The notes under the pieces are model-generated. The model saw nothing but the letters and a program-made list of their open reading frames with translations, was not told where the DNA came from and did not search any database. DNA of 43,515 nt from an archaeon (GTDB lineage Archaea > Nanobdellota > Nanobdellia > Woesearchaeales > UBA9642). The stretch is taken from positions 1-43,515 of the forward strand of contig JAZDHK010000041.1 of NCBI GenBank assembly GCA_043806035.1. The letters run 5' to 3'. Shown in pieces: positions 5,714-27,060 of this stretch (within the stretch, counting starts at the first letter, position 1; every line of letters starts with the position of its first letter). The position numbers and the translations under genes are program-made.

Positions 5714-7405
5714 ATGCGTACACTGATGACTGCCGAATATATTGAAACGCCTCTTCTCATCATAGGTAGCGGCATAGCAGGACTGCGAGCTGCCATCGAA
5801 GCGAGCAAGCAAGGAGTGCAGGTCATCATCATTACGAAGTCAAAAATCACTGATGCAAACACGTACTACGCGCAAGGCGGCATAACAGGAGTGGATCCTG
5901 GCCGTGTAAAGAGAGGAGAGGACAGCTACGAATCGCTCACCCGTAACACCTTGGCTGCAGGCGACGGAATTTGCGACAAGACAGTCGTTGACTATTTCAG
6001 CAAAAACTCCTTCGAGCCCATACAGTTCCTCCTGCAACACAACGTCCCTTTCTCAAAAGAAGCAGACCATTTCGTACTGCACCAGGAAGGAGGGCACGAC
6101 TTTCCAAGAATCTACTGCGTTGCGGACTACACAGGCAAGGCAATAGAAGAAACGCTTGCACAAACAGTCCTTGCGGACAACAACATCACCGTTTTCGAAT
6201 ATCATCAGGCCATAGCACTGCTGACAAAAGCAAAGCTTGGCTGTTCGGGAGAGAACAGATGCATAGGCGCACATGTCATAGACAGGAAATCGGGAATGGT
6301 GAAGACGTTCAAGGCAGATGCGATACTGCTCGCGACGGGTGGTGGGGGAAGAGTGTTCCAGTTCACGAGCAACCCCGACGATGCGACGGGGGACGGCATT
6401 GCCATGGCATATGCTGCAGGTGCCGTTATTGCGAACATGGAATTCTTTCAGTTTCATCCAACCGTATTCTATGAACCAGCGAACGCGGAGTCAAGCGACA
6501 GACGATTTTTGCTCACGGAAGCCCTGCGCGGGGCGGCGATGGGGGGCATCCTCACCACTACTCCATCATCAAAAGAGGACTTTGTGCTCAAGTACGATGC
6601 ACAGGGATCTCACGCGACCCGTGACAAGGTCTCGCGGGCAATCGATACAGAGATGAAACGTGCAGGGCTAAAGAACGTGTACCTCAACGTCACCACAGAC
6701 GTGACGAAAAAATCCGATGAATACATCAGAGAGCACTTTCCCAAAATATATGAGCACTGCATGAAGCGAGGAATAGATATCACCAAACAGCCAATACCCA
6801 TCATCCCTGCAGCACACTACACCTGCGGCGGCGTACTCGTCGACATGTCGGGGAAGACAAACATTCAGGGACTCTACGCGATTGGCGAGGTTGCCTGCAC
6901 GGGCCTGATGGGCGCTAACCGACTCGCATCAAACTCGCTCACGGAAGGAGCGCTTTTCGGGAAGCTCGCCGTGCAGGATGCTCTGCAGTTCAGCAAGACC
7001 AAAAATACGGAGTGTGTGCCGTTGTGGTCGACGGAAGGCATTGTCCAGCATGCAGACATGGCAACCGTCAACCAAATATGGGACATCACCAGAACGACCA
7101 TGATGAGCCTGTGCGGCATCGACAGAACGCAAGAGCGCTTACAGGCAGCGTGCGCGATCCTCGATAGCCTCGGCACGGCCGTCAACAGCATTTACTGGAA
7201 CTACTACCCTAATGACCAAATACTCGAGCTCAGGAATCTGCTGCAGACGGCAAAGCTGATCGTACACGCAGCGCTCTTCCGCAAAGAAAGCAGAGGCGGG
7301 CACTTCAGATCAGACTATCCTGCAAAAGATGCTGCTTTTGAGGGAATGACGATACTCGAGCAAGGCAAGGAACTCAGGATAGAGAAACTGCATTCTGAAC
7401 AATAG
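5714..7405 (+). CDS. nadB: L-aspartate oxidase
   Basis: IIGSGIAGL, NTYYAQGGI, EGGH..PRI, MEFFQFHPT, LLTEALRG, AHYTCGG, GANRLASNSL and RKESRGGHFRSDYP. Confidence 0.9.
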   Translation: MRTLMTAEYIETPLLIIGSGIAGLRAAIEASKQGVQVIIITKSKITDANTYYAQGGITGVDPGRVKRGEDSYESLTRNTLAAGDGICDKTVVDYFSKNSFEPIQFLLQHNVPFSKEADHFVLHQEGGHDFPRIYCVADYTGKAIEETLAQTVLADNNITVFEYHQAIALLTKAKLGCSGENRCIGAHVIDRKSGMVKTFKADAILLATGGGGRVFQFTSNPDDATGDGIAMAYAAGAVIANMEFFQFHPTVFYEPANAESSDRRFLLTEALRGAAMGGILTTTPSSKEDFVLKYDAQGSHATRDKVSRAIDTEMKRAGLKNVYLNVTTDVTKKSDEYIREHFPKIYEHCMKRGIDITKQPIPIIPAAHYTCGGVLVDMSGKTNIQGLYAIGEVACTGLMGANRLASNSLTEGALFGKLAVQDALQFSKTKNTECVPLWSTEGIVQHADMATVNQIWDITRTTMMSLCGIDRTQERLQAACAILDSLGTAVNSIYWNYYPNDQILELRNLLQTAKLIVHAALFRKESRGGHFRSDYPAKDAAFEGMTILEQGKELRIEKLHSEQ

Positions 7406-7406
7406 T

Positions 7407-7421
7407 CCGGGCGGGGCTATA
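7407..7421 (+). repeat. Direct repeat R1 (CCGGGCGGGGCTATA), tRNA-Gln-like 3' end
   Basis: Identical 15-mer at 8095-8109 and a 13-mer at 9525-9537. Archaeal tRNA-Gln genes typically end ...CGGGGCTA. Confidence 0.8.
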
Positions 7422-7503
7422 GTCCCTAAAGTGACATTCAAGGGTCTATTTTTCCGGTTCTTTTAGCGAAAAATATATAAATTTCATGATACTTATGGAT
7501 ATT

Positions 7504-7713
7504 ATGGCTACCACAATATCCATATCAACGGCACTGCGAGATAAACTAAAAAATCTTGGACGCACGGGCGAGTCGTACGAAGACGTCATTGCCAGGATGT
7601 ACGAAGCGACGCGAAAGAACCTCCTGCTCGCGTACCTCTATGACACGTCAGACTGTGTCAGCATCGACGAAGCATTGGCAGAAGCGAGAAAACGATGGCC
7701 AAAGTCACGATAA
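7504..7713 (+). CDS. RHH-like antitoxin
   Basis: MATTISISTALRDKLKNLGRTGESYEDVIARM is a strand-helix-helix pattern. Overlaps the downstream toxin-like gene. Confidence 0.75.
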   Translation: MATTISISTALRDKLKNLGRTGESYEDVIARMYEATRKNLLLAYLYDTSDCVSIDEALAEARKRWPKSR

Positions 7714-8033
7714 CATCTTCTTTACGAGAGGACATTCTCAAGAGGTTCAAGGGAGATGCAGAGAACATATTCTTGCGCATGAAATCGCTCGAGGCAGAGC
7801 CGCACAAAGGAAAAGCTCTTGCACATGTAGCTGAAATAGTCATCAAGGAGCTTAAACATGAAAAATATCGTTTCTATTTCATCACAGACGGCAGAGTCCT
7901 GAAATTCGGCACGGAAGATGAACTGGCAGCATTACTCATAAAGTTTGTTCGGATGTCTGAGAAGAAAGACCAACAAAAGGTCATTAACAGTATCAAAGCG
8001 GTACTGCAGTCGATGGGTTTCAACGGTTTCTGA
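7695..8033 (+). CDS. RelE/ParE-fold toxin-like protein
   Basis: KVTIT...LEAEPHKGKAL...IKELKHEKYRFYF; 112 aa directly downstream of a small antitoxin. Confidence 0.65.
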   Translation: MAKVTITSSLREDILKRFKGDAENIFLRMKSLEAEPHKGKALAHVAEIVIKELKHEKYRFYFITDGRVLKFGTEDELAALLIKFVRMSEKKDQQKVINSIKAVLQSMGFNGF

Positions 8034-8094
8034 TGCTGTCTGTGTTGTTGCACTAAGAAACGGAGTCCTCTTGACACGATGGCACCATCCACCG

Positions 8095-8109
8095 CCGGGC
8101 GGGGCTATA
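8095..8109 (+). repeat. Direct repeat R2, tRNA-Gln-like 3' end
   Basis: CCGGGCGGGGCTATA, identical to R1. Confidence 0.8.
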
Positions 8110-8141
8110 AACAGTTTTGTGACATCAGAGAGACCAAATTT

Positions 8142-8735
8142 TTACCATTCAATAAACGCTTGGATGGCATGTTCTTTTCTAAGCTGTATCAAGTTTTTTT
8201 CTTCAATTATCTTATCATCTGCAGTAATCTGTTTTGAATTGTATGCTTTCTTAATTTTTTCAACAAGAAATCTCCGTTCATGAGCTAATTTTTTTATGTC
8301 TTCATTGAAAAAGTATATTTGCAAATCTTCTCGTAATTTTTTTTGTTTACTTTCCATCCTGATGATATCCTTACAGATATGAAGAAATCCTTTGATACAT
8401 TTTTCATAATCTGAATCATCAAGCTGGTCGAGAAATATTCGTATGGTTTGTTTTAGTGCGGATATCTTGAATTGTATGTGTCGCATTCCATGGCCTTTTT
8501 TATGATGATGTATCATCGTTTCTTTTGATTCTGTTGTGCCCTCAACTAGATATTTTGCTGATGAGAGGCTTAGGTTATATTCATCCTCCACAAGAGAATT
8601 TGTTTCTTCGAGCTCTATCTTCGTACCTTTTTCTGAATAGGTTATTCTCCAAGTGTTTTCTGTTTCTGAACGTATGTTCTGAAGATGTTTTCGGTTAGCA
8701 TATTCCTGAAGTATGTATCTGCTTGAAGATTTCAT
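8142..8735 (-). CDS. Hypothetical protein with His cluster (candidate toxin)
   Basis: 197 aa with IHHHKKGHGMRHIQF. ATGA overlap with the upstream gene. Confidence 0.6.
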   Translation of the reverse strand: MKSSSRYILQEYANRKHLQNIRSETENTWRITYSEKGTKIELEETNSLVEDEYNLSLSSAKYLVEGTTESKETMIHHHKKGHGMRHIQFKISALKQTIRIFLDQLDDSDYEKCIKGFLHICKDIIRMESKQKKLREDLQIYFFNEDIKKLAHERRFLVEKIKKAYNSKQITADDKIIEEKNLIQLRKEHAIQAFIEW

Positions 8736-9400
8736 TTTAGTACCTTCATGATATCTGAATATAACGAATCTCGTGATAGATTTGTCCGATTATATGCCTG
8801 TTTCCATTTACTTTGGCTATTGTAATCATCAACTGTTTCTAACTCATACAACTTTACATCGAATGTTTCTTCTAAGATTTGTTTCACACAGATTAAATAA
8901 ATCATTTCCTTTTCTTTTTTAGGCAATGTTGAAGGGCTTGTCCATTTTTTGTCAATCTTTACATTTACGATGTCTAAATCAACTTCCCAGCCCATATTTC
9001 CATTTTGTACTGAACTGTCAAGATTTGCTGTTAATCTCTTCGATCTCAGAAGCGCTATGATTGACAGGTCATTGTAAGTGCAAACAACATCATAACACTT
9101 GTTGTCTAATTCTACACTGACTGTGGTTGAAGTTCTTGCATATTTTGTGCCTACGACATTGTCTTTAAAAATAACCTCGGTTCCACCACCGTATCCAGTT
9201 CCATCGTCAAATCCGTGACCTGAAGCAGTTCCTCCGCCATAACCAGGATCATCTAGCATACCAACCATTTTTATTAATCTTAACAGTATCTGCTCGTGGG
9301 TTTCCTTACCTTTGGCTAGAGATTCCAGCATTTTCTTGGTTCGCTCTGACAGCCGCAGCGATGTTTGCTTATCCCGAGTGCTTACTTTAATTGTGTTCAT
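8732..9400 (-). CDS. Protein with N-terminal RHH-like antitoxin domain and extended C-terminus
   Basis: TSLRLSERTKKMLESLAKGKETHEQILLRLI resembles the antitoxin at 7504. Start placed at ATG 9400. Confidence 0.65.
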   Translation of the reverse strand: MNTIKVSTRDKQTSLRLSERTKKMLESLAKGKETHEQILLRLIKMVGMLDDPGYGGGTASGHGFDDGTGYGGGTEVIFKDNVVGTKYARTSTTVSVELDNKCYDVVCTYNDLSIIALLRSKRLTANLDSSVQNGNMGWEVDLDIVNVKIDKKWTSPSTLPKKEKEMIYLICVKQILEETFDVKLYELETVDDYNSQSKWKQAYNRTNLSRDSLYSDIMKVLK

Positions 9401-9416
9401 TTCGATTACCTTAGTT

Positions 9417-9434
9417 TGTATGCAATGTATGCAA
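9417..9434. promoter_or_regulatory. Tandem TGTATGCAA x2, putative RHH autoregulatory operator
   Basis: Perfect 9-bp tandem repeat between an AT-rich TATA-like region (about 9444-9456) and the start codon at 9400. Confidence 0.4.
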
Positions 9435-9524
9435 AATATGCTTTGTATATTTAAATCTTTTGATTTTGAATAATGCTTTTTACTAAAAGTTGGTCTCTGC
9501 CATGTCACTTAACCGATTGTCCAG

Positions 9525-9537
9525 CGGGCGGGGCTAT
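9525..9537 (+). repeat. Direct repeat R3, tRNA-Gln-like 3' end
   Basis: CGGGCGGGGCTAT, 13 nt shared with R1 and R2. Confidence 0.75.
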
Positions 9538-9564
9538 GTGCTATTAACGATAGCAGCGTCATTC

Positions 9565-10140
9565 CTAATAATTTTCCTCATGCAGTTCGAAGAACGACTG
9601 CGGGTGCAGGCAGGCGGGGCATTTTGCGGGGGCGGTCGTCCCCTCATGCAGATAACCGCAGTTGCGGCACTTCCAGATGCGTTTTTCTCCACGCACGAAC
9701 ACTTTGCCTTCCTCAAGATTCGTGAAGAGCTTGACGTATCGTTCCTGATGCGCCTTCTCGACAGTCGCGATCATCCTGAACGCCACGGCAATGTCGGGGA
9801 AGCCTTCCTCCTGAGCAATTTTTGCGAATTCAGGATAGAGCATGGTCCATTCTTCATGCTCACCTTCAGCTGCCGCCTTGAGATTTTCAAGCGTTGTTCC
9901 TATCTTTCCTGCAGGATACGTCGCCGTTATCTGCACGGGCCTGCCTTCCAGGAACTTGAAGAACCGCTTTGCATGCTCTTTCTCATTGAGGGAGGTCTCT
10001 GCGAAGATGGCCGAGATTTGTTCCAGACCTTCTTTCTTCGCCTGCGACGAGAAATAATCGTAGCGCATGCGCGCCTGACTCTCGCCAGCGAATGCTTTGA
10101 GGAGGTTCTGTTCGGTTCTGGTTCCTTGGAGCGGTTTCAT
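9565..10140 (-). CDS. rbr: Rubrerythrin
   Basis: NLLKAFAGESQARMRY, EKEHA and EKAH, plus a C-terminal rubredoxin domain WKCRNCGY...CPAC. Confidence 0.95.
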   Translation of the reverse strand: MKPLQGTRTEQNLLKAFAGESQARMRYDYFSSQAKKEGLEQISAIFAETSLNEKEHAKRFFKFLEGRPVQITATYPAGKIGTTLENLKAAAEGEHEEWTMLYPEFAKIAQEEGFPDIAVAFRMIATVEKAHQERYVKLFTNLEEGKVFVRGEKRIWKCRNCGYLHEGTTAPAKCPACLHPQSFFELHEENY

Positions 10141-10844: not shown

Positions 10845-12038
10845 TTATTTGTTGCTCATAATCTCAATGACATCCAGATGCTGCAGCACATGATCCTTGC
10901 CTATGGGCAGGCGCTTCTTGACGTCCATAGCCTTCACGAAATTCTTTCCGAAATCAGTGTGTAATTTGTAGGCGAACTCGAGCGCAGTCGTCGTCCCGGG
11001 AAGCAAGAAGCAGTCAGGCAATACTCTGCCGTACTGGTCCTCTAGCTTGTGCATGCCGCCAGGGAATACTGCTTTATACTTCAGCAGTTCAAAGACGGCC
11101 CTGTTCAGCACGTCCTGCACCCCCGTAGACCCCCCCTGATCAAGAACAGTCGTCTTAATGAATGCGAGCGCTGCCTGCTGCTTGTCGCTGAGACTTCCTG
11201 TAATTTCGTAATTGTTCTCCCCAGGAACGTACTCAATGAGATTATGCTTTGCTGCTTCCTTTAATGCAAGCTCTGATTCTGCAGAAACAGGCACGATGAG
11301 ATACTCAGGAAATTCCTTTTGTAGCCGCTCATAATTCTCCTTGCCCGTGCTCACATCTATTTTGTTTGCGGCAATAATCATGGGCTTTGCCTTCTTCCTG
11401 AGCAAAGAGGCAAGATGATGCAAGTCATCCTCAGTCCATTCCAAAATTCTCCCTCTATCCAGCCGGAGCTTTTCGATGCTGTCTTTCACCATCAGCTCAT
11501 CAACACCCATTCCCGAAAGCTGCTTTGCTATTGCCCTGTCGACGTCAGCATGCTCCTGCTGCACTTGCCTCGAGAATCTCCCCCAGGTCTTTTTCATGAT
11601 ATCAAGATACCAAAAGTCAAGCTCCTCTTCAAGAAATTTGATGTCCTCCGTAGGATCCCTCGTTCCGGGTGGGACAGGTTCTCCCTTCTCGTTCGTGCTG
11701 CCAGAAACGTCAATGACGTGAATGAGCGCGTTCGCCATGTTCAGATCGGAAAGGAACTGGTTGCCCATGCCCTTGCCTTCATGGGCGCCAGGGACGAGGC
11801 CTGCTACGTCGATCATCTCTACAGGCACGAAGCGGTTGTGTTTGAGACAAAACCCTTCTCGAGGATTGCACTGCACCTTAAAAAAAGTGTCCACGCACGG
11901 GATCTTGACGTATCCTGCCCCCCTGTTCGGAGCTATAGTTGCAAAGGGATAATTCGCGATGAGCACTTCAGCCAAAGTTGTGGCCTTGAAAAACGTGCTC
12001 TTGCCTACATTTGCTTTTCCCACGACTCCTATGAGCAT
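10845..12038 (-). CDS. ychF: OBG-family translation-associated GTPase/ATPase (archaeal YchF/Ygr210 type)
   Basis: GKANVGKST, YPFAT, DVAGLVPGAHEGKGMGNQFL, NKID, and a C-terminal TGS domain (FAYKLHTD). Confidence 0.92.
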   Translation of the reverse strand: MLIGVVGKANVGKSTFFKATTLAEVLIANYPFATIAPNRGAGYVKIPCVDTFFKVQCNPREGFCLKHNRFVPVEMIDVAGLVPGAHEGKGMGNQFLSDLNMANALIHVIDVSGSTNEKGEPVPPGTRDPTEDIKFLEEELDFWYLDIMKKTWGRFSRQVQQEHADVDRAIAKQLSGMGVDELMVKDSIEKLRLDRGRILEWTEDDLHHLASLLRKKAKPMIIAANKIDVSTGKENYERLQKEFPEYLIVPVSAESELALKEAAKHNLIEYVPGENNYEITGSLSDKQQAALAFIKTTVLDQGGSTGVQDVLNRAVFELLKYKAVFPGGMHKLEDQYGRVLPDCFLLPGTTTALEFAYKLHTDFGKNFVKAMDVKKRLPIGKDHVLQHLDVIEIMSNK

Positions 12039-12107
12039 AAACAACAGCAAACGAGGACGGTATAAAAATGTTTCTGCGTATTGCTACTTTTTCATTTCAG
12101 CTAACTT

Positions 12108-12113
12108 TTTAAA
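12108..12113 (+). promoter_or_regulatory. TATA box of the giant phosphotransferase gene (probably leaderless)
   Basis: TTTAAA about 25 nt upstream of GTG 12136. Confidence 0.45.
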
Positions 12114-12135
12114 TGTACTGCCAAGAAAAAGAACC

Positions 12136-15100
12136 GTGTTCATCAAACCCTTCACTGCCTTAACTATGCGAGACGTTTCCATTGCCGGAGGCAAAGGTGC
12201 CTCTCTGGGAGAGATGCTGCAAGCAGGCATCCCCGTTCCCGACGGCTTTGTCATTCTTGCCAGCACATTCGACGTATTCCTCAAGACAAACAAACTCGAT
12301 GCCACCATAGCAGCCATTCTTGCAAAAACAGAACACGAAGAAACGGCAGCTGTAGAGGAATCATCAAGAAAGATACAGACACGTATCCTCAATGCGGCAA
12401 TTCCCAAAGGCATCCAAACGGAGATTACTGCAGCATTCGCGAAGCTTGACACGATGTACGTCGCCGTCAGAAGCTCAGCAACAGCCGAAGATTCCTCCAG
12501 CGCAGCCTGGGCGGGACAATTGGACAGCCATCTCAACACTACAAAAGCAACGCTCCTTGAGAATGTGAAGCGCTGCTGGTCCAGCCTCTTCACCCCCAGA
12601 GCCATTTTCTACAGGTTCGAACAGAAACTCGAGAACGAACACGTCTCCGTCGCTGTCGTCGTCCAAAAAATGGTGGAGAGCGAACGATCAGGCATAGCGT
12701 TCACCGTTCATCCAGTGACGCAGAACAGGCAAGAGCTGCTCATCGAAGCAGGCTACGGCCTTGGTGAGGCAATCGTTTCAGGGCAAGTGACGCCTGACAA
12801 CTACACCATTCTCAAAAATCTTACTATCAAGGAAAAGAATCTTGCCGAGCAGACACGGCAGATCGTCAAAGGACAGGACGGCGGCGTGATGTGGGTTCCA
12901 TGTACGAAACAAGGACAGACGCTCTCTGACAAGGAAATCATCGAACTCTCGCAAATACTCCTACGCATCGAAAAGCATTACGGCTTCCCCAGCGACATCG
13001 AATGGGCGTACGAGAAAGGAAAGTTCTACATCGTCCAGTCAAGGCCGATAACGACGCTCACACCAGAGGAACCAACCCCTGTTGTTCCCTCGGGGCAGGT
13101 TATGCTCACCAAAATATTCTCCCGACAGAAATCCCTGATGTACATGATGATGTGGGACATTTCTGAACGTATAGGATACAAGGATTTCATCAACTATGAC
13201 CTCAAGCACAGCGTCTTCATCTATGATGGGCTGACGAGAAAAACATCCGTATGGTATGACCTACAAGAAGCAGAGCACATCAAGCAATTGCTCTTTGCAA
13301 AAGTCAAGGCGGACAAGACCTTTGTTGGAAACATCATCGCAAGACTGGACAAGCACTGGAAGCTCATTTCACCTTATTTGCTGAAAAAGAGCAGCATACG
13401 CTCTATCAAAGAATTCGAGCAGTACTACTCGAACATCACGCAGTGGTGGTCGGCGATGAACACAGTCTATCCCTTGATCAACGATCCCGATCTCTCTCCT
13501 GCAGCAAGCAGGACGTTCCTGCTCTACCGAGAACGTACAGAACGCTACACGGGAGAGATGGACACTACCATCTGCAATTTTTGGAAAAAATTGCTCCATT
13601 CCGATTTGGCAGAATTTGTCCTTCTCGATGAGGCGATCAAACTCTCGAAAAAAGAGATTCCTGCAGAACGTAAATCGATAGAAGAGAGAAAACGAGGATT
13701 TGGCATCTACAAAGGCAAACTTTACACGCCGACGGCGCTGAAGCAACGTATGGAAGAGCAAGTCCTTTCTTTGCACAAGGTAGAAACGCAGAACGTGCAG
13801 CAATTTACAGGTGTTACTGCATTTAAGGGCAACGTGCGGGGGCGAGTGAAGAAAATCATCGTCCGAGAAGACATCCGTGACTTTCGGCAAGGAGAAATAC
13901 TCGTTGCAGAAACGACATTCCCCGATCACGTTCCCGCCATGAAGAAAGCTGCCGCCATCATCACGGACGAGGGAGGCATTACCTGCCATGCAGCGATAAC
14001 AGCAAGAGAACTCAAGATTCCCTGCATCATCGGGACAAAAATAGCGACGCAAACACTCAGCGACGGCGACCTCGTCGAAGTAGACGCCACCGCAGGCATC
14101 GTACGCATCCTGACTGAGCAAACGTCTTCTCTCGTCGACACGTTCATCGCAGATCAGCATGGTAAAGAGATCACAAAGCACGAAGGCAACTTCTCTCTTC
14201 TTGTCTGGGGGACGGCTGCATCGCTGCAATCAAGTCCACTCTACAAGAAATACTACGCTGGTGATTTTAGCAGTCTGCTTTTTCTCGTTGAAGAAAAACG
14301 TGGCATCGGCTTCTTCAACATGGACGCGTACAAGCGCTGCGCAGAACAGGCAATAGATCAATACGTGCACGATCGTTTTCCCTTACTTGATGCATGCAAA
14401 AAAATTTTCGTCACCATCAAAAAAATGTATGATACCTACACTACAGAGACGCTCAAGACGTTTTCGGGCAAAGCACTTGAACAGATTATCATTCTTGCAT
14501 TCCAGACCTGGCGTAATTTGCAAGTGCTCACCCTCTTCTGTGAGGCGCTCGATGAGCACATGGTTAAGGCATATGCTGATAAAGAAAAAATAAAGATTGA
14601 CATCAACAGTTTCTTTGAGCATGCGTCCCTGTGTGACTTCGAGGAATTCCTCGCTATACGAGATAGGGCTCTGCTCGAGGAGAAAAGACCCGCATGGGTG
14701 CTTTCTAGCTATCTCTTTACGCCGAAAGCGACACCTGCATTGATTAATCAACTGATCAAAGAATCAGGTGGGCAGAAGAAACTTCGAGAAGAACTGCAAC
14801 GCTCGCTCGACCAAACCAAGAAAAATAAACAGCGTTCTGCAGCGTACAGAACAACACTTTCTGGCAAAGTGTGCAAACTCTACGACTACGTCAAGACGGC
14901 CATTGCATTGCGGGACATGCGCAAGGCAGATACGTTCAAGAACATTGCAGTCCTCTCTGACAGTGTCAGAGAAATGTTCAAGCGCATGCATCTTGATGAA
15001 GAAAATATCATCTATGCTCGTGCAGAAGACTTTGAAGAGAAAACATACGAGAACAAAGACTATAATGCCCTTCTACAGAGGAGAAAGCACGGTGTTGCAG

Positions 15101-18100
15101 TCCTTTACAGTGCAGCTGTAACCAAGGAAGAATGTGTGCCTTTCGAGGAAACGCGAAACAAAATATTCTCAGTTCAGGATGCCGGAAAAGAAAAAGACGT
15201 TACGGGAAATTGCGCTTGTTCGGGGAAAGCACAAGGGGCAGCACGCATCATCCTGAGCAGCAAAGATTTCGAAAAATTCCAGCAAGGAGACGTTCTTGTC
15301 ACATCCATGACGAGACCTGAATTTGTCCCGCTCTTGAAGAAAGCGTCAGCCATCATCACCGACGAAGGGGGCATCACCTGCCACGCAGCAATCATCTCTC
15401 GTGAGTTAAAGATTCCTTGTATCATTGGCACTAAGCATGCAACACGCACAATTAAAGACGGTCAGCTGCTTGAGATTAATGCCTCTGCAGGAGTCGTGCG
15501 CATCATCGAGAACCAGCAGCAATGGACGAAGCTCTGGGAGGACAGGTCATACGGCCTTGGCATCGTCTGCAGCGCAGAAAATTCAGTAACAGAACAGTTC
15601 ACCAAACGGTTTGACGTCGCTATGCAACTTATTGTTATTAGATATGAGAACGGCAAAAGCTCCTGCTATTGTCTGACCAATGATTTGCGAGCAGGAGGAC
15701 AAAAGATCATCGCAAAAATCAGGACGAGCGACTTCGCAAAAAAGACAATAAACGAGGTTAGAGCAGAGACGGAGAAGCTGAAATCATCCATTTCCCCGAT
15801 ACTGGATATGGAATTGCAGAGCAAAAATTATGAGCAATTGACAAACATGTATCGTGACGTTTTGCAGCGCCTTGAAGAATTCTATGCGGTCGCATTCATC
15901 CCCATCTTCTTGGAGACGGGAGAGAACCAGCTCTCAGATGAGACAGAACGCATCATCAAAGAGGCACTCGCATGCGAGAAACGAGAAAAGGAATTTGCAG
16001 AAATCTTCACCGTACTGCTCACGCCAACGACTCCCTCAACCATCATGGAAGAAGAACTCGCCTTGCTCCGTACGCTCAAGCAACTACGCGGATCTCCCCA
16101 AGAAATACTGCAGAGCATCCTCGTCAAAAAACACATTCGTGATTGGTCCTGGATTAGCTTCAATTTCGTTGACAAGATAGAATGGGATGAGAGCGTCTAT
16201 GCGGACAGGATACGAAAGATACTGGCAGAGAAAAAAATCGATCAAAAAATGCGCGAAATCCTCGACTATTCAAAAACGATACAGAAAAAGCAAGAATCCA
16301 TTCTCAAGAGCATTCGCTTCTCAAAAGAGGAGTTAGCACTCATTACTGCAACACGTCAATTCGCTGAAGTGAAAGAATACCGGAAGAACATCATCACGCT
16401 ACTCTTCTACTGTTGTTTTATCATTCTCAAAGAATTGGCCAGCAAGAAGAAAAGATCTCTGCCGGATATGAACTTCCTCACTCCCAACGAGATAGCAGAG
16501 CAGAAATACACAGAGGCAAAGGAGAGAATGACGTATTCTGTCATCCTTGTCAAGGATGGCAAATCCACCATCCTCACTGGCGACACTGCGCGAAAGAAAG
16601 CAGAAGAACTGCAGCTTGACGCAGAAGAGAAGATTGCAAACGTCGATGAACTCAAAGGGACGCCCGCACAAATTGGAAACGCAAAAGGCACCGTGCGCAT
16701 CGTGAACTCATTTGCTGATGTCAAAAAAGTCCAGGAAGGAGATATTCTCGTGAGCATCGCGACGTTCCCTGACCTCGTACCTGCAATGAAAAGAGCGGGC
16801 GCCATCGTCACGGACGAAGGGGGAATGACCTGCCACGCTGCCATCATCTCCCGAGAGCTCAAGAAGCCCTGCATTATCGGGACGAAGATAGCGACGAAGG
16901 TGCTGCACGATGGTGATATTGTCGAAGTCGATGCAAATAACGGTCTTGTACGGCGAGTCACGGAAAAGAAAACGTTCACGAAATCATATACGAGAGACTT
17001 CTCCATCATCATGGAAGAGGCATGGTATCATGGCTGCACGAAAGGACTGCAGGACGTGTTCGGTTGGACGATGCAGCACCTGCCGTTCGCCATCTATTAT
17101 CTCAACCAAGGATCCATCGAGGTATGGGAGAATGAAAAAGCGCGTAAGGAACTGCTCGACCGCATCCTTGAAGCGAACAAAAAAACCGCATTCTTGCAGA
17201 ACGTCCAGAAGAAATACGCAGCACTGCTCAAGCAGCTAGAGCCATCCTGGAAAAAAGGATATGCGGAGAATCTTCCTGCATTCGCGCAATCCCTTTTTGC
17301 CATCATGCCTTACTTCGTCGTCCAATACTACACTGCACTTGATGAACGAACCCCTCCTGCTATTCGGAAATTGGCGCTTGGCATGCGCAACACCGACGTC
17401 TTGTTCGATTGTTGCGACAAGATAATCAGGACATCGTTACTCGGAAAATCCATCATCAGAGGAGTTGAGACCTGCGTGCTTGAAAAAGAGCTTGAAAAGA
17501 TCCCTCCACCAAACGTTCTTGAGGAGAGAAAGAAACATTTCGTCGTCATTCCCGGAACGGTTGAAGCATGTCTGCCTCTAGAAAAATATGTAGAACAGAA
17601 TCCTACCGTACAACTCGTGCACACCAAAGGAGATTTTGACGGGCAACGATTGCAGGGCACGTGTGCATTCAAAGGCAAGGCGTCAGGAACAGTCCGTATA
17701 CTAAGAACCAAGGACCAGATAGCGCTTATTCAGGAAGGGGACGTGCTTGTCTCGCCCATGACCACTCCTGACTTTCTGCCTGCCATGAAGAAGGCAGCTG
17801 CCATCATTACCGATGAGGGAGGGATAACGTGCCATGCAGCTATCACTGCCCGTGAGCTCAAGAAGCCAACGGTCGTTGGCACGGAAATAGCGACACACGT
17901 ACTCAAGGACGGCATGTACGTTGAAGTTGACGCAGATAACGGGCTGATTCTTTTGCAAAAAGGCCAAGACAATGCACAAAATAATGCATTCACGAAACTT
18001 GTCGAAGAAGTCAAGCAAACACCCATGGACATCCAGAAAGCACAAGGAAACATCTGCGGACCAGACCTCGTGTTTCCCGTGTACGCATCAGCATCCATAC

Positions 18101-20862
18101 TTCCAGGAACGGCATACCCGCTCCAGCTCGGATACGTAAAGGAACTACACTTCCTCCAAATGACTCCCGTAACAGCATTAGCCAACCTCACACGCTCGTT
18201 ACGGACGATGATGAACACTCCTGAACGCTTTGACGCCATTCTCAAAAACGCGCACAAGGCAGCAGAACAGATGGATGCCGCATGGGCTGACTATCAACGA
18301 AACGGCTTCAGCAGCAAAACGTTCGACACGCTCATAACAAACATACGTGCATTCTGGCAGTACGGCATCCTCGGAGAGGATAAGGGTGCATTCCTCGAAT
18401 CCATACTCATCCCCCTTCTTGTCAAAAATCACGAACTTACTCAGAACGAGGCGCACAGCCTGCTCTCCGCACTCACCCATCCAGAAAGACCAGCATCATT
18501 CAGCAAGGAACGTCTCGATTTTTACAACTTGTGCCTTTCTGTCTCATCACTACAGGATACGCAGAGCAGTACAGCAAATGCACTCTGCAACAAACCATTG
18601 CTCACGAAACTGAACCGATACGTGACGGAATACTTTTTCAAAGACACGAACTTTGTCGACAGAAAAATAGTCACTCCAGAAAGCGTCTTGGCAGATATAC
18701 AGAAAGAGCTGCACGACATCAACGCCGTTCGCCAATCCCGCAAGGAAATACTCAATGGATTTGTTACGGTACGAAAAGAAAGAGAACACGCCACAAAAAA
18801 ATACACCTTCAGCGTAGAGGAAAGAAAGAAACTGGCATTTGCCCAAACATTCATCAGCTTTGTTGACGAGCGAAAAGAAGCAATGATGAAAACATTCTAC
18901 TACTTCTTCTCTGCCATTCATGACATTTGCGACAAACTCCATTTGTCCTATGCTGATGTGCAGTGGTTGACGGTCGATGAAATTCGTGCAATCCTGAATG
19001 AAAATATGCAGTTCGAACTAACGCGTGTACAGCAACGAAAACAGGGAACGATGCTCGTCTACTATCCAGGAAAACCCGTAATCATTTACACAGGAGGGCA
19101 GGCAGAGGCACTCTATGCCGTGTCGCAACATGAAGTGTACGAGGCAACCGTGAAAGGAATGGTTGCAAGCCCAGCAAAAGATGGAAAACGCATCAGAGGC
19201 AGAGCACGAATCATCACGAACCCTTCAACAAGCACATTCAACAAAGGAGACGTGCTTGTCGCAAGCATGACACGTATAGAGTTCGTGCCGCTCATGAAGA
19301 AAGCAGCAGCCATCATCACGGATGAGGGAGGCATTGCCTGTCATGCAGCCATTGTCTCCAGAGAATTAAACATTCCCTGCATCATCGGCACGAAAAATGC
19401 AACGCAAGCGCTCAAGATCGGAGACCTTCTCGAGGTGGACACAACGACGGGCAGGGTACACGTAATCGAGCGAAAAACAGACATGCAAGAACTACACGAA
19501 CGCGTTGCATCAACAGCATGGTACAGGCAAGGAGGATCCTTGCTGCCGTTCTTCATCAGCACGCCCTACCAATGCGTGTATCAGGCATGGGGGCAGGATG
19601 CTGGATTCATCATCCAGCAAGGCATGGACAACATCGCATACTTCAACAAAAGCATAGAGAAGGAAAAACTCGATGAGGCAATAGCAGCATCCCTTGAAGA
19701 CAAGCAGTTCTTGCAGAAAAAGATGAAGGAATGGAGAGTTCTCGTGCGACTGCAGCAAGAAGAACTCAACATGCTGCTGCAGGAACCTACACGAGACATT
19801 CGTGCGTTCGTCAAGGCAACCATCGATGCCTGGGCAGCAACGCTCTTCATCGAAGAAACTGATCCCTGGGGGGATATCGTCCTGCACGACTATCTGCGCA
19901 CGTATGGTGTTTCAGACAAAGAGCTTGCCATACTCACCTCTCCCAAACACTACGGCTACCTGCAACAGGAAGTGCTTGATTTCTGGAAAGCAGTCGAGAA
20001 GGGAGGGGCTCTCAAAAAACATCACGCAACGTATTCCTGGTATTTGGCGTCATGGCTGCACGCCCCGCAACTCACTGAAGAACACTTCCTTGGCAGATTG
20101 CACAAGAAAGGAAAAGTGGGCATACGCAAAGAAGCCAACACCATACGCAAACACCGCCAGGAGACGGAACGGCAGCGGCAGCACCTTCTCAAAAAATATG
20201 CGTTCGACACAAAAACTCGGCGTGTGCTCGACTACTTCAGAACACTGAACGACTGGCGTGATGAACGGAAAAGAGAACTTGTCTGCAAGACAAACACCCT
20301 TCTCGATCAGCTCATCCACCGAGTGTGCATGTTGAACGCCATTCCCCTGCAGGAAGCAAAACACCTTGCCTTCTTCGAAATCAGCAGTCTCCTCCTTACC
20401 GAACAGTACAAGGAAGAGCTGAAGAAGAGAAACCAACAATCGTACGCGTACTGGCAAGACACGCCCGGACACTACACGTATTTGTGTGGGGCAGAGGCAG
20501 AACAGCTCAAGGCAGCCCTCGAGGAAGCCCTCAAAAGTGCACAAAAGGACCTCTGCGGCAGGCCAGCCTATCCAGGAAAAACTCAAGGAATAGTCAGAAT
20601 CATCAATGCGCCCGCTGACTTTTCAAAGATGAATCCTGGAGACATTCTCGTTTCGGTCATGACCCGCCCTGAACTCGTCCCTGCGATGAAAAAGGCAGGA
20701 GCGATTATCACTGATGAAGGAGGCATTACCTGTCACGCTGCCATCATCTCCCGAGAGCTCAAGATTCCGTGCATTGTCGGCACGCAATTAGCAACCACCA
20801 TACTGAAAGACGGAGATGTCGTAGAAGTCGATGCTATGCAGGGCAAAGTTCACAAACTATAG
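12136..20862 (+). CDS. Giant modular PEP-utilising-family phosphotransferase: PPDK_N ATP-grasp domain plus 6 x [acceptor-like domain + phospho-His swivel]
   Basis: N-terminal GGKGASLGEM, VAVRSSATAED, VVVQKMV and DIEWA...QSRPITT. Six TDEGGxxCHAAI motifs with His codons at 13987, 15382, 16834, 17833, 19342 and 20734. No C-terminal PEP-binding TIM barrel. Start placed at GTG 12136 (2908 aa) because the track start overlaps ychF. Confidence 0.9.
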   Translation: MFIKPFTALTMRDVSIAGGKGASLGEMLQAGIPVPDGFVILASTFDVFLKTNKLDATIAAILAKTEHEETAAVEESSRKIQTRILNAAIPKGIQTEITAAFAKLDTMYVAVRSSATAEDSSSAAWAGQLDSHLNTTKATLLENVKRCWSSLFTPRAIFYRFEQKLENEHVSVAVVVQKMVESERSGIAFTVHPVTQNRQELLIEAGYGLGEAIVSGQVTPDNYTILKNLTIKEKNLAEQTRQIVKGQDGGVMWVPCTKQGQTLSDKEIIELSQILLRIEKHYGFPSDIEWAYEKGKFYIVQSRPITTLTPEEPTPVVPSGQVMLTKIFSRQKSLMYMMMWDISERIGYKDFINYDLKHSVFIYDGLTRKTSVWYDLQEAEHIKQLLFAKVKADKTFVGNIIARLDKHWKLISPYLLKKSSIRSIKEFEQYYSNITQWWSAMNTVYPLINDPDLSPAASRTFLLYRERTERYTGEMDTTICNFWKKLLHSDLAEFVLLDEAIKLSKKEIPAERKSIEERKRGFGIYKGKLYTPTALKQRMEEQVLSLHKVETQNVQQFTGVTAFKGNVRGRVKKIIVREDIRDFRQGEILVAETTFPDHVPAMKKAAAIITDEGGITCHAAITARELKIPCIIGTKIATQTLSDGDLVEVDATAGIVRILTEQTSSLVDTFIADQHGKEITKHEGNFSLLVWGTAASLQSSPLYKKYYAGDFSSLLFLVEEKRGIGFFNMDAYKRCAEQAIDQYVHDRFPLLDACKKIFVTIKKMYDTYTTETLKTFSGKALEQIIILAFQTWRNLQVLTLFCEALDEHMVKAYADKEKIKIDINSFFEHASLCDFEEFLAIRDRALLEEKRPAWVLSSYLFTPKATPALINQLIKESGGQKKLREELQRSLDQTKKNKQRSAAYRTTLSGKVCKLYDYVKTAIALRDMRKADTFKNIAVLSDSVREMFKRMHLDEENIIYARAEDFEEKTYENKDYNALLQRRKHGVAVLYSAAVTKEECVPFEETRNKIFSVQDAGKEKDVTGNCACSGKAQGAARIILSSKDFEKFQQGDVLVTSMTRPEFVPLLKKASAIITDEGGITCHAAIISRELKIPCIIGTKHATRTIKDGQLLEINASAGVVRIIENQQQWTKLWEDRSYGLGIVCSAENSVTEQFTKRFDVAMQLIVIRYENGKSSCYCLTNDLRAGGQKIIAKIRTSDFAKKTINEVRAETEKLKSSISPILDMELQSKNYEQLTNMYRDVLQRLEEFYAVAFIPIFLETGENQLSDETERIIKEALACEKREKEFAEIFTVLLTPTTPSTIMEEELALLRTLKQLRGSPQEILQSILVKKHIRDWSWISFNFVDKIEWDESVYADRIRKILAEKKIDQKMREILDYSKTIQKKQESILKSIRFSKEELALITATRQFAEVKEYRKNIITLLFYCCFIILKELASKKKRSLPDMNFLTPNEIAEQKYTEAKERMTYSVILVKDGKSTILTGDTARKKAEELQLDAEEKIANVDELKGTPAQIGNAKGTVRIVNSFADVKKVQEGDILVSIATFPDLVPAMKRAGAIVTDEGGMTCHAAIISRELKKPCIIGTKIATKVLHDGDIVEVDANNGLVRRVTEKKTFTKSYTRDFSIIMEEAWYHGCTKGLQDVFGWTMQHLPFAIYYLNQGSIEVWENEKARKELLDRILEANKKTAFLQNVQKKYAALLKQLEPSWKKGYAENLPAFAQSLFAIMPYFVVQYYTALDERTPPAIRKLALGMRNTDVLFDCCDKIIRTSLLGKSIIRGVETCVLEKELEKIPPPNVLEERKKHFVVIPGTVEACLPLEKYVEQNPTVQLVHTKGDFDGQRLQGTCAFKGKASGTVRILRTKDQIALIQEGDVLVSPMTTPDFLPAMKKAAAIITDEGGITCHAAITARELKKPTVVGTEIATHVLKDGMYVEVDADNGLILLQKGQDNAQNNAFTKLVEEVKQTPMDIQKAQGNICGPDLVFPVYASASILPGTAYPLQLGYVKELHFLQMTPVTALANLTRSLRTMMNTPERFDAILKNAHKAAEQMDAAWADYQRNGFSSKTFDTLITNIRAFWQYGILGEDKGAFLESILIPLLVKNHELTQNEAHSLLSALTHPERPASFSKERLDFYNLCLSVSSLQDTQSSTANALCNKPLLTKLNRYVTEYFFKDTNFVDRKIVTPESVLADIQKELHDINAVRQSRKEILNGFVTVRKEREHATKKYTFSVEERKKLAFAQTFISFVDERKEAMMKTFYYFFSAIHDICDKLHLSYADVQWLTVDEIRAILNENMQFELTRVQQRKQGTMLVYYPGKPVIIYTGGQAEALYAVSQHEVYEATVKGMVASPAKDGKRIRGRARIITNPSTSTFNKGDVLVASMTRIEFVPLMKKAAAIITDEGGIACHAAIVSRELNIPCIIGTKNATQALKIGDLLEVDTTTGRVHVIERKTDMQELHERVASTAWYRQGGSLLPFFISTPYQCVYQAWGQDAGFIIQQGMDNIAYFNKSIEKEKLDEAIAASLEDKQFLQKKMKEWRVLVRLQQEELNMLLQEPTRDIRAFVKATIDAWAATLFIEETDPWGDIVLHDYLRTYGVSDKELAILTSPKHYGYLQQEVLDFWKAVEKGGALKKHHATYSWYLASWLHAPQLTEEHFLGRLHKKGKVGIRKEANTIRKHRQETERQRQHLLKKYAFDTKTRRVLDYFRTLNDWRDERKRELVCKTNTLLDQLIHRVCMLNAIPLQEAKHLAFFEISSLLLTEQYKEELKKRNQQSYAYWQDTPGHYTYLCGAEAEQLKAALEEALKSAQKDLCGRPAYPGKTQGIVRIINAPADFSKMNPGDILVSVMTRPELVPAMKKAGAIITDEGGITCHAAIISRELKIPCIVGTQLATTILKDGDVVEVDAMQGKVHKL

Positions 20863-26734: not shown

Positions 26735-27060
26735 TGCAGTGCATATACTCCTTCCGTGAACATCATGACCGCCATGATGAGCAGGATGGGCTGGGCTATG
26801 CCGGGAAAGAAACTCCTGAACAGGGCAAGAACTGCAGGAATGATGAAGACAACAGCAGTGATGATGTTTATCGTACGAATCCCCTGCTTGTGGATGCCGA
26901 GCATGATGATCGTGATGAACTGTAATGCAATCATCAGAATGGCCCCCACAACGACTTTGTCGAATGGCAACGTGAGAGAAAAGAGATTGAGCTCCTCAAG
27001 TGCGATGAGGATGCTGAATGGCAGCAATGAAATGCCCAATATCTTGCCAAGCATGCTCAT
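26731..27060 (-). CDS. Small 4-TM membrane protein (paralog 1)
   Basis: Four hydrophobic segments; shares KI.G, PFD, PA and C-terminal EG motifs with 26387-26734. Confidence 0.65.
   Translation of the reverse strand: MSMLGKILGISLLPFSILIALEELNLFSLTLPFDKVVVGAILMIALQFITIIMLGIHKQGIRTINIITAVVFIIPAVLALFRSFFPGIAQPILLIMAVMMFTEGVYALH

Follow-up and report, generated by a model that had tools for sequence, protein, structure and literature searches.

A tandem array of two integrase-less, att-bounded cassettes in a Woesearchaeales archaeon, probably moved in trans by a tyrosine integrase family that targets tRNA-Gln

Organisation of the locus

We analysed a stretch of 43,515 nucleotides (nt) of an archaeon of the Woesearchaeales (UBA9642; GenBank assembly GCA_043806035.1, contig JAZDHK010000041.1, positions 1 to 43,515; the whole stretch is hereafter called the window), in which two small gene cassettes lie in tandem between three copies, R1, R2 and R3, of a short core sequence. 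The 12-nt core GGGCGGGGCTAT occurs at 7409-7420, 8097-8108 and 9526-9537, and a fourth match with one mismatch lies at 26788 inside a coding sequence; 0.05 matches are expected in the window by chance, and at least four were reached in none of 100 shuffles. Across the 1.5-Mb genome the core pattern was found seven times and a reversed control pattern not at all. The cores flank both cassettes, inside which only an antitoxin and RelE-fold toxin candidate pair and two unassigned proteins are encoded, and the cassette ends carry short arms set back from the cores. The features of the region are listed below; lengths of proteins are in amino acids (aa), and read evidence consists of contigs from run X1 (63% of sampled words, depth about 4; possibly the source sample), which leave 9468-9788, including R3, uncovered.

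5714..7405, plus strand: left flank, nadB (L-aspartate oxidase-like); Pfam FAD_binding_2 277 bits, Succ_DH_flav_C 60.6 bits
7406..7420, plus strand: R1, 15-nt copy of the tRNA-Gln(CTG) 3' end (TCC plus the 12-nt core), equal to 2812-2826 of contig C24; attL-type junction of host, core and cassette-1 left arm, spanned by a run X1 contig (7096-7503)
7431..7451, plus strand: cassette-1 left arm, GTGACAT box and TCAAGGGTCTA-type motif, 10 nt past the core; nhmmer left-junction profile E 3.9e-7
7486..7713, plus strand: cassette 1, gene 1, antitoxin-like, 75 aa as listed; Pfam DUF7557 28.5 bits (cut-off 25), VAPB_antitox 25.7 bits (under its cut-off of 27.9)
7695..8033, plus strand: cassette 1, gene 2, RelE/ParE-fold toxin candidate, 112 aa; overlaps gene 1 by 19 nt
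8063..8086, plus strand: cassette-1 right arm, GGAGTCC...GATGGCACC type; degenerate against its own left arm, conserved at other loci
8095..8108, plus strand: R2, 14-nt core copy; junction of cassette-1 right arm, core and cassette-2 left arm, spanned by a run X1 contig (7928-8156)
8109..8142, plus strand: cassette-2 left arm, GTGACAT at 8119-8125; a near-identical arm follows tRNA-Gln in genome G205 (L042)
8142..8735, minus strand: cassette 2, open reading frame (ORF) for a 197-aa protein with an invariant His-rich motif; adjoins the 222-aa gene in 6 other genomes
8732..9400, minus strand: cassette 2, ORF for a 222-aa protein; homologs in 7/301 genomes of the order, own included
9485..9518, plus strand: cassette-2 right arm, ATGTCAC at 9502-9508; cognate score 18, dyad at core position 2.5
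9525..9537, plus strand: R3, 13-nt core copy; attR-type junction of cassette-2 right arm, core and host
9565..10140, minus strand: right flank, rubrerythrin; Pfam Rubrerythrin 109 bits, RUBY_RBDX 55.9 bits

The nadB stop codon adjoins the 15-nt match and is thus separated from the 12-nt core by 3 nt. An earlier note on this DNA had reported a GTGACAT box at the same offset after R1 and R2 and none after R3, and this was confirmed: the boxes start at 7431 and 8119, each 10 nt past the 12-nt core, there is no further plus-strand copy between 7300 and 9700, and the complement occurs there only at 9502-9508, 17 nt before R3. Genome-wide the heptamer occurs 155 times on both strands. As a shared box of the cassette ends it holds for the left arms of the window and is not universal, since among 18 left junctions selected by eye GTG was located exactly at the left offset in 10 and within 1 nt of it in 14. 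The inverted arms described for cassette 2 were found as reported, with 20/24 identities between 8119-8142 and the reverse complement of 9485-9508, and a repeat search lengthened them to 34 nt at 76% (8109-8142 / 9485-9518). Joining the right end of this cassette, the core and its left end indeed gives the predicted imperfect palindrome of about 90 nt, a hairpin over about 90 of 102 nt in which the inner aaccgattgt/ataaacagtt symmetry is present as pairing; its minimum free energy is -32.1, against a shuffle mean of -19.8 (z -3.6; 0/200 shuffles as good). The right arm of cassette 1 had rightly been called degenerate: the corresponding junction folds with z -0.8, and 49/200 shuffles were as good. 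The same right end (8077-8108) is 31/32 identical to 2824-2855 of contig C25, a second locus of the genome, and right arms of this type are also located at C25:2810-2833, C25:1268-1296 and C25:3530-3556 and on contigs C1 and C26.

The GC content of cassette 2 is 0.28-0.45, compared with 0.49-0.60 in the flanks, a foreign composition. A family search for the phage integrase domain (PF00589) gave no match on the window contig (C41), and no integrase fragments were detected in the window cassettes among either ORFs or PF00589 matches. Both cassettes keep attL and attR and hold no integration genes between these attachment (att) sites, as do the cis-mobilizable elements (CIMEs) discussed below.

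The core is the 3' end of tRNA-Gln and lies beside a XerA-like integrase

The core was identified as the 3' end of tRNA-Gln, a point absent from the earlier note. An intron-bearing tRNA-Gln(CTG) gene at C24:2692-2825 ends in the core (Rfam tRNA 44.3 bits with model positions 1-71 complete; aragorn with introns), and the core, up to TCCGGGCGGGGCTAT, consists of the 3' strand of the T-stem, the 3' strand of the acceptor and the discriminator of this tRNA. R1, R2 and R3 share 15, 14 and 13 nt, respectively, with the tRNA end on C24. A search of six core loci for RNA families at E <= 1 returned tRNA only. The second gene, tRNA-Gln(TTG) on C4, ends in the identical 11 nt with no arm-like sequence after it and therefore looks like an unoccupied site. 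In addition, tRNA-Gln genes that end in the core were found in genomes G175, G106, G206 and G295.

On C24, a left arm (GTGCACTTCTGGGGCTA) of the same kind as the window arms begins 12 nt past the 11-nt core of tRNA-Gln(CTG) and is followed by a complete tyrosine integrase gene, whose XerA-like product has 369 aa. Past the stop codon of this gene the contig continues for 13 nt; it shows no terminal overlap with any contig. The enzyme matches PF00589 (Phage_integrase) at 53.6-55 bits and the NCBIfam model XerA_Arch at 89 bits, under the cut-off of that model, and among solved structures it comes closest to XerA of P. abyssi (4a8e, E 5e-9). Residues R186, K213/K215, H271, R274, W296 and Y306 are invariant among four integrase homologs; the catalytic R..K..HxxR..[H/W]..Y signature was thus found in integrase-bearing members of the family and not in the window cassettes. 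The SSV-type integrase family (PF16795) had no match in the genome.

Several observations on tRNA genes were made in passing. In the window genome (G000) aragorn listed 19 tRNA genes, or 24 when introns were allowed, and both tRNA-Gln genes hold introns of 61-64 nt; many tRNAs of this organism may therefore have long or non-canonical introns. Furthermore, at L085 (about 2340-2398; G212:C4) and L060 (about 1450-1511; G208:C6) a tRNA-Gln body runs to the T-loop (..ccagttcgaa) and is followed by 28-48 unrelated nt and then by tctGGGCGGGGCTA, which could be either a non-canonical T-loop intron or a hybrid recombination junction.

Relatives of the element and a circular member

Since the relatives of the window genome are kin to each other, the counts across genomes and cassettes given here are non-independent. 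Cores were found, often clustered, in 16 of 19 genomes of the family, and of 201 genomes sampled from the order, the own one among them, 15 encode integrase homologs with E <= 1e-20. The relatives show the recurring order of a tRNA-Gln gene, a core, an integrase element and small integrase-less cassettes in tandem. In G175, tRNA-Gln(TTG) is followed by the core, a left arm and an integrase 54% identical to that of C24; a right arm with another core lies 11.4 kb further on. G106 has a tRNA, a core and an integrase (47%), after which cores recur at distances of 3.9, 5.6 and 6.2 kb. The most distant of these has one mismatch, and those at +3.9 and +5.6 kb each precede GTGAC..GAGAGGGCTAA. Elements with these ends that encode a recombinase, which the earlier note had proposed to look for, thus exist at tRNA-Gln both in the same genome and in relatives. 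Its proposal of one element family is likewise supported by an identical core and arm layout around unrelated cargo at C24, C25, C1 and C26 and in the relatives.

In core copies away from tRNA genes the right arm ends 15-18 nt before GGGC and the left arm begins about 11 nt after the core. The smallest units hold little else: in G213 (L072, C3) an 80-nt core-to-core unit consists of two arms only, without cargo, and in G206 (L070, C15) three cores lie 58 nt apart, the first two each preceding an identical left arm. Cargo of the family is often made up of toxin-antitoxin or defence genes, and in the relatives comprises a MutH-like nuclease with a C5 methylase, PIN, Schlafen-AlbA and Fic proteins, a nucleotidyltransferase, TrmB regulators and metabolic genes.

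Scanning of metagenome contigs yielded 174 integrase relatives, the two closest being 60% and 57% identical to the integrase of the genome. These two are encoded on contigs L087 and L089 (7,684 and 7,781 bp), which represent a single 7,654-bp sequence in two circular permutations, 100% identical and with terminal overlaps of 30 and 127 nt; because they possibly come from related samples, the two were counted as one observation. On this circle the att site is contiguous: the right arm CTCTTAATCCGAACAA, 15 nt, the core, 11 nt and the left arm TGTTCGGATTTAGGGCT. The joined site, folded as DNA, reached z -5.06 (0/200 shuffles as good), so the palindromic attP predicted by the earlier note is present in a circular relative. 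A free circular form with a joined attP was seen in this relative only, the circle being deduced from the permuted contigs. The circle also encodes a serine resolvase (101 bits) and has a weak match to a Zot-like ATPase, and it may be either a plasmid or a virus. A 670-aa protein on it, without Pfam match, could be a replication protein.

A strict T-loop motif was located at most 600 nt upstream of the integrase gene at 13 of the 72 loci for which upstream sequence was available, in tRNAs such as those for Glu, Phe, Leu and Gly; the wider integrase family targets several tRNAs. No integrase relative was detected in viral contigs, where 31 matches to the core pattern, without arms or tRNA, were rejected as chance occurrences in GC-rich sequence.

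Symmetry of the junctions

Symmetry was measured on the 15 cassettes with both cores intact. Arms of one cassette matched each other better than arms drawn from different cassettes did. Complementarity scores of cognate arms ranged from 4 to 20, against a mean of 6.6 (standard deviation 1.6, maximum 12) for 210 non-cognate pairs, and 5 of the 15 cognate pairs lay above the 95th percentile of the non-cognate ones (Mann-Whitney p = 5e-4, for cassettes that are kin and non-independent). The dyad fell at core position 2.0-3.0 in 9 of the 15, despite gaps between arm and core of 1-11 nt on the left and 7-17 nt on the right. From this constant dyad we infer that strand exchange would be centred at core positions 2-3; the remaining core, out to the discriminator, would then be kept only for rebuilding the tRNA. 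The asymmetric spacing of the arms from the repeats, to which the earlier note had drawn attention, proved to be typical of the family (about 11 nt on the left, 15-18 nt on the right) and yields the constant dyad.

Interpretation of the array

We consider it probable that the window holds a tandem array of two integrase-less, att-bounded cassettes that are moved in trans by a tyrosine integrase family targeting tRNA-Gln. They are best read as a known general kind of element, namely non-autonomous att-bounded mobile cassettes, here in little-studied Woesearchaeota-type archaea. In the proposed mechanism an integrase provided in trans, for which the 369-aa XerA-like enzyme of C24 is the candidate, would recombine two flanking cores and release a circle. 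In the circle the right arm, core and left arm would form the imperfect palindrome, with its dyad between core nt 2 and 3 in the middle of strand exchange and with the arms as putative binding sites of the recombinase. Re-entry into any core copy, in a tRNA-Gln gene or in an array, would regenerate the core on both sides and let arrays grow. The window cassettes would be non-autonomous members of this family, moved in trans or in cis, and may still be mobile.

Several results weigh against this interpretation. The window array is not adjacent to any tRNA, and the array on C1 described below poses the identical problem, its distal core overlapping the purA stop codon. With R1 and R3 both intact, conservative recombination needs a pre-existing core of 12-15 nt, which chance does not supply. 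No right arm was found upstream of R1, nor anything there complementary to any left arm, and comparison of that sequence with the left arm of C24 gave a background score of 6. Upstream of nadB no att site or degenerate core was found. Among the relatives compared no empty site of these cassettes was seen: of 31 related genomes, the own one among them, 5 carry a nadB homolog, and within the family 1 of 18 others does; the closest such locus (G215, 71% identical) has neither downstream synteny nor a core, and in the loci of relatives examined no core is situated close to any flank gene (rubrerythrin, purA, archease, the C24 antiporter and others). Being rare in relatives, the nadB-like gene may itself be accessory DNA. 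Excision joints were not seen in the run X1 contigs, whose power to reveal them is low at a depth of about 4 and with R3 uncovered. Furthermore, 6 of the 15 cassettes have no clear cognate inverted repeat or dyad and show only background matches with scattered centres, the own arms of cassette 1 are barely complementary (score 8 against the background of 6.6 +/- 1.6), and the distance from arm to core is variable, which is odd for fixed protein-binding sites. Integrase homologs at E <= 1e-30, finally, were present in only 3 of the 19 family genomes, compared with cores in 16. The non-tRNA position of the array could possibly be due to earlier seeding of a core, to rearrangement between core copies or to a step missing from the proposed mechanism.

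Cores being far commoner than close integrases, many arrays may be relics, and one alternative is that the window cassettes themselves are decayed, immobile remnants of autonomous integrase elements whose arms and cores are fossils, comparable to the decay by which CIMEs are described to arise. Such decay would fit the lack of an integrase in the array, the degenerate arms of cassette 1, the degenerate outer cores at C25, C1, C26 and G295 and, as far as they go, the missing joints in the read contigs. However, the three window cores are intact, the arms of cassette 2 agree at 20/24 around a precise dyad, and the cassettes are tight units of arm, one or two genes and arm, 0.07-2 kb in size, and not ragged deletion products; in addition, the same cargo modules recur next to cores in different genera and surroundings, and the same genome carries an integrase of the family with intact catalytic residues. 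We thus regard dead relics as an unlikely explanation. The compact layout and the cargo-less units also favour, not decisively, dedicated mini-elements over decay of an autonomous element.

The form of the junctions calls to mind capture as in integrons, in which the junction, folded into a hairpin as single-stranded DNA (cf. attC), would be recognised through its shape and not its sequence, and the tRNA-Gln end would serve as attI. Arms that vary between cassettes and are complementary within them, a dyad that stays fixed though the stem starts at a variable distance, junctions of 80-100 nt and arrays of small cassettes with one or two genes, often toxin-antitoxin, would all be expected of such a system, and integrons have been reported in archaea (10.1101/2022.02.06.479319). 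Nevertheless, inverted binding sites of a recombinase dimer would co-vary too, the C24 integrase scores only 16.3 bits against the integron integrase cut-off of 265 (TIGR02249), and the boundaries are formed by the tRNA core GGGCGGGGCTA and not by an attC site with R''/L''/L'/R' boxes and a GTTRRRY crossover. Moreover, the inverted repeats lie at opposite cassette ends, which would place the crossover centrally in the palindrome, away from its base, and cargo is found in both orientations relative to the core, which makes a common promoter impossible. An integron-like mechanism is therefore improbable here. Still less credible is a transposon-type origin, in which non-autonomous casposons or DDE elements would have left terminal inverted repeats and a target-site duplication of 12-15 bp. 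The inverted arms and a direct repeat of casposon-like length do suit it, and casposons are described as targeting tRNA 3' ends, forming tandem arrays and occurring at non-tRNA sites with near-identical duplications (PMC4779613), so that the non-tRNA position of the window array would fit as well. On the other hand, the genome (93.7% estimated completeness) has no match to Cas1 (PF01867; a control search of 14 known genomes was positive in 7), the arms are set back from the repeat by gaps of 1-17 nt, the repeat sequence is identical at all loci, and every autonomous relative found has a tyrosine integrase directly beside a tRNA. The earlier note had preferred site-specific recombination to DDE or casposase activity, and the integrases that carry the same left arm at tRNA-Gln in the own genome, G175, G106 and G206, together with the lack of a Cas1 match, support that choice.

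Cargo of the cassettes

Cassette 1 is predicted to encode a candidate pair of an antitoxin, from Pfam matches, and a RelE-fold toxin, from structural modelling. The toxin candidate belongs to no family in Pfam, PADLOC, NCBIfam or PHROGs, and a profile of its three paralogs found nothing among the sequences of solved structures (best E 0.1). Its AlphaFold2 model, built from only three paralog sequences, has a predicted local distance difference test (pLDDT) score of 79.7, and the top Foldseek rows for it are all RelE, HigB, ParE or YoeB, with a template modelling (TM) score to target of 0.65-0.75 and prob 1.00. The best row is the archaeal RelE 1wmi_A (TM 0.60/0.75, root-mean-square deviation 2.3 Å); E values were only 1e-3 to 1e-2 (best 1.1e-3, above 0.001). 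Paralogs of the pair on C1 and C26 are 46-50% identical, each within a cassette of its own with degenerate cores, and their genes are inverted relative to the arms when compared with cassette 1.

To see this module in other genomes, 80 loci from 259 relatives were surveyed, of which 62 entered repeat tests. A core with at most one mismatch lay within 1.5 kb at 6 of the 80 loci, and two flanking copies were present at only one. Direct repeats of at least 11 nt around the pair were not enriched (16/62 loci against 21 in shifted control windows); repeats of at least 14 nt occurred at 7/62 loci and at none of the shifted controls. The module of about 0.67 kb may ride on several att systems. The seven loci (L207, L217, L219, L232, L238, L253 and L255, in metagenome-assembled genomes labelled Woesearchaeota or Nanoarchaeota) have repeats of 14-71 nt lying 647-692 bp apart, which differ in sequence; two of them resemble tRNA 3' ends.

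Neither protein of cassette 2 had a match in Pfam, PADLOC, NCBIfam or PHROGs. The N-terminus of the 222-aa protein reads like a ribbon-helix-helix DNA binder, judging from its residues and without a family match. For the model of the 197-aa protein (pLDDT 87.5) Foldseek gave no match at E <= 0.001, and VIA-align only generic beta-sheet matches (best Z 7.4). The two genes are retained together in 6 of 300 other genomes of the order, belonging to six different genera, and in G295 the pair comes after tRNA-Gln(TTG) and two core copies.

Relation to known systems

Archaeal integrative elements that target tRNA genes (PMC8371274, PMC6563490) share with the present family a tyrosine recombinase beside the att site, integration at tRNA 3' ends, a direct repeat that restores the tRNA, short att sites and tandem re-use of one site. 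Thaumarchaeal att sites are given as 8-26 bp, with a median of 17 (PMC6563490), and for archaeal elements integration at the 3' ends of protein genes and retention of an intact integrase gene have been described (PMC8371274, PMC6563490). The family reported here differs in consisting mostly of integrase-less cassettes of 0.07-2 kb with inverted arms of their own and a fixed dyad, in a host of the Woesearchaeota-type DPANN. The main text of PMC8371274 contains 0 mentions of DPANN, Woesearchaeota or Nanoarchaeota, and full-text literature searches returned no paper describing such a system in Woesearchaeota or DPANN, though supplementary files may list DPANN elements.

In streptococci, CIMEs (PMC5704250) likewise keep attL and attR, lack integration genes and stand in tandem with integrase elements at a tRNA 3' end, and composite excision is described as possible for them (PMC5704250). 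CIMEs are, however, presented there as decay products of bacterial conjugative or mobilizable elements, whereas the present cassettes are compact single-module units, including cargo-less 80-nt forms, in archaea without known conjugation. The tycheposons of Prochlorococcus (10.1101/2020.12.28.424599) are similar in combining tRNA-targeted integrase elements and exchangeable cargo with small streamlined genomes that lack other transfer routes; successive integrations are described as pushing older elements inward, with partial tRNAs and degraded elements scattered in islands (10.1101/2020.12.28.424599). They belong to another domain of life and have other integrases, replication modules and about 10 kb of cargo, and palindromic junctions with a fixed dyad or mini-cassettes are not among the features described for them. 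Integron cassettes have in common with the present ones a small size of one or two genes, arrangement in arrays, frequent toxin-antitoxin cargo and an imperfect palindrome of varying sequence and kept symmetry; here, in contrast, there is neither an IntI-type integrase nor GTTRRRY, the palindrome is split between the cassette ends and cargo lies in either orientation. Casposons likewise have inverted repeats and a direct repeat of comparable length, insert at tRNA 3' ends as well as at non-tRNA sites, and form tandem arrays (PMC4779613). The present family differs in that neither Cas1 nor PolB was found, the arms are set back and the autonomous relatives encode tyrosine integrases.

Gene exchange in the tiny genomes of DPANN archaea is almost uncharted, and the locus and its relatives provide a system open to experiment, in which a tRNA-Gln att core and an integrase to match it are joined by a member in free circular form and by many integrase-less cassettes with toxin-antitoxin, restriction-modification and metabolic genes. 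Islands of accessory genes in these genomes can be sought by a simple rule, copies of the tRNA-Gln 3' end combined with symmetric arms, and the fixed dyad predicts the site of strand exchange. Moreover, small cassettes with symmetry-conserved junctions raise the question of an independent archaeal capture device of the integron kind. A bolder proposal, conceivable if doubtful, is that DPANN archaea run a tRNA-based, integron-like capture of mini-cassettes of 70 bp-2 kb with symmetry-defined junctions and the dyad at core nt 2-3, in which a XerA-like integrase would shuffle cassettes in trans between tRNA-Gln genes, arrays and seeded ends of protein genes. If true, it would be a private cassette economy for these tiny genomes.

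Further arrays and other observations

A second array of the same genome is located at C1:76337-78971 (L001, L002, L056), with the purA stop codon inside an intact core. It consists, in order, of this core, a cassette with a TrmB regulator and a 308-aa protein, an intact core, a pair of the cassette-1 type, a degenerate core (10/14) and an archease gene; the TrmB/308-aa cassette has the strongest palindromic ends seen (z -6.2). On C25:1-3600 (L004) an AAA ATPase gene is followed by an AbiEi/AbiEii cassette and then a DUF2683/YafQ-like cassette, which have an intact core between them and a degenerate core on either outer side. The AbiEi-like/AbiEii and DUF2683/YafQ-like pairs have counterparts next to cores in G206 and G213, at identities of 73% and 72%. 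At C26:46685-47390 (L175) the cassette-1 paralog is situated between a core with two mismatches and a degenerate core about 690 bp apart, the size of cassette 1. Elsewhere in the window, an ORF at 11959-20862 (plus strand) encodes a 2,967-aa protein with about six repeats of the PEP-utilising-enzyme mobile domain (..ITDEGGITCHAAI..ELKIPCI.GT..), an unusual multi-repeat architecture.

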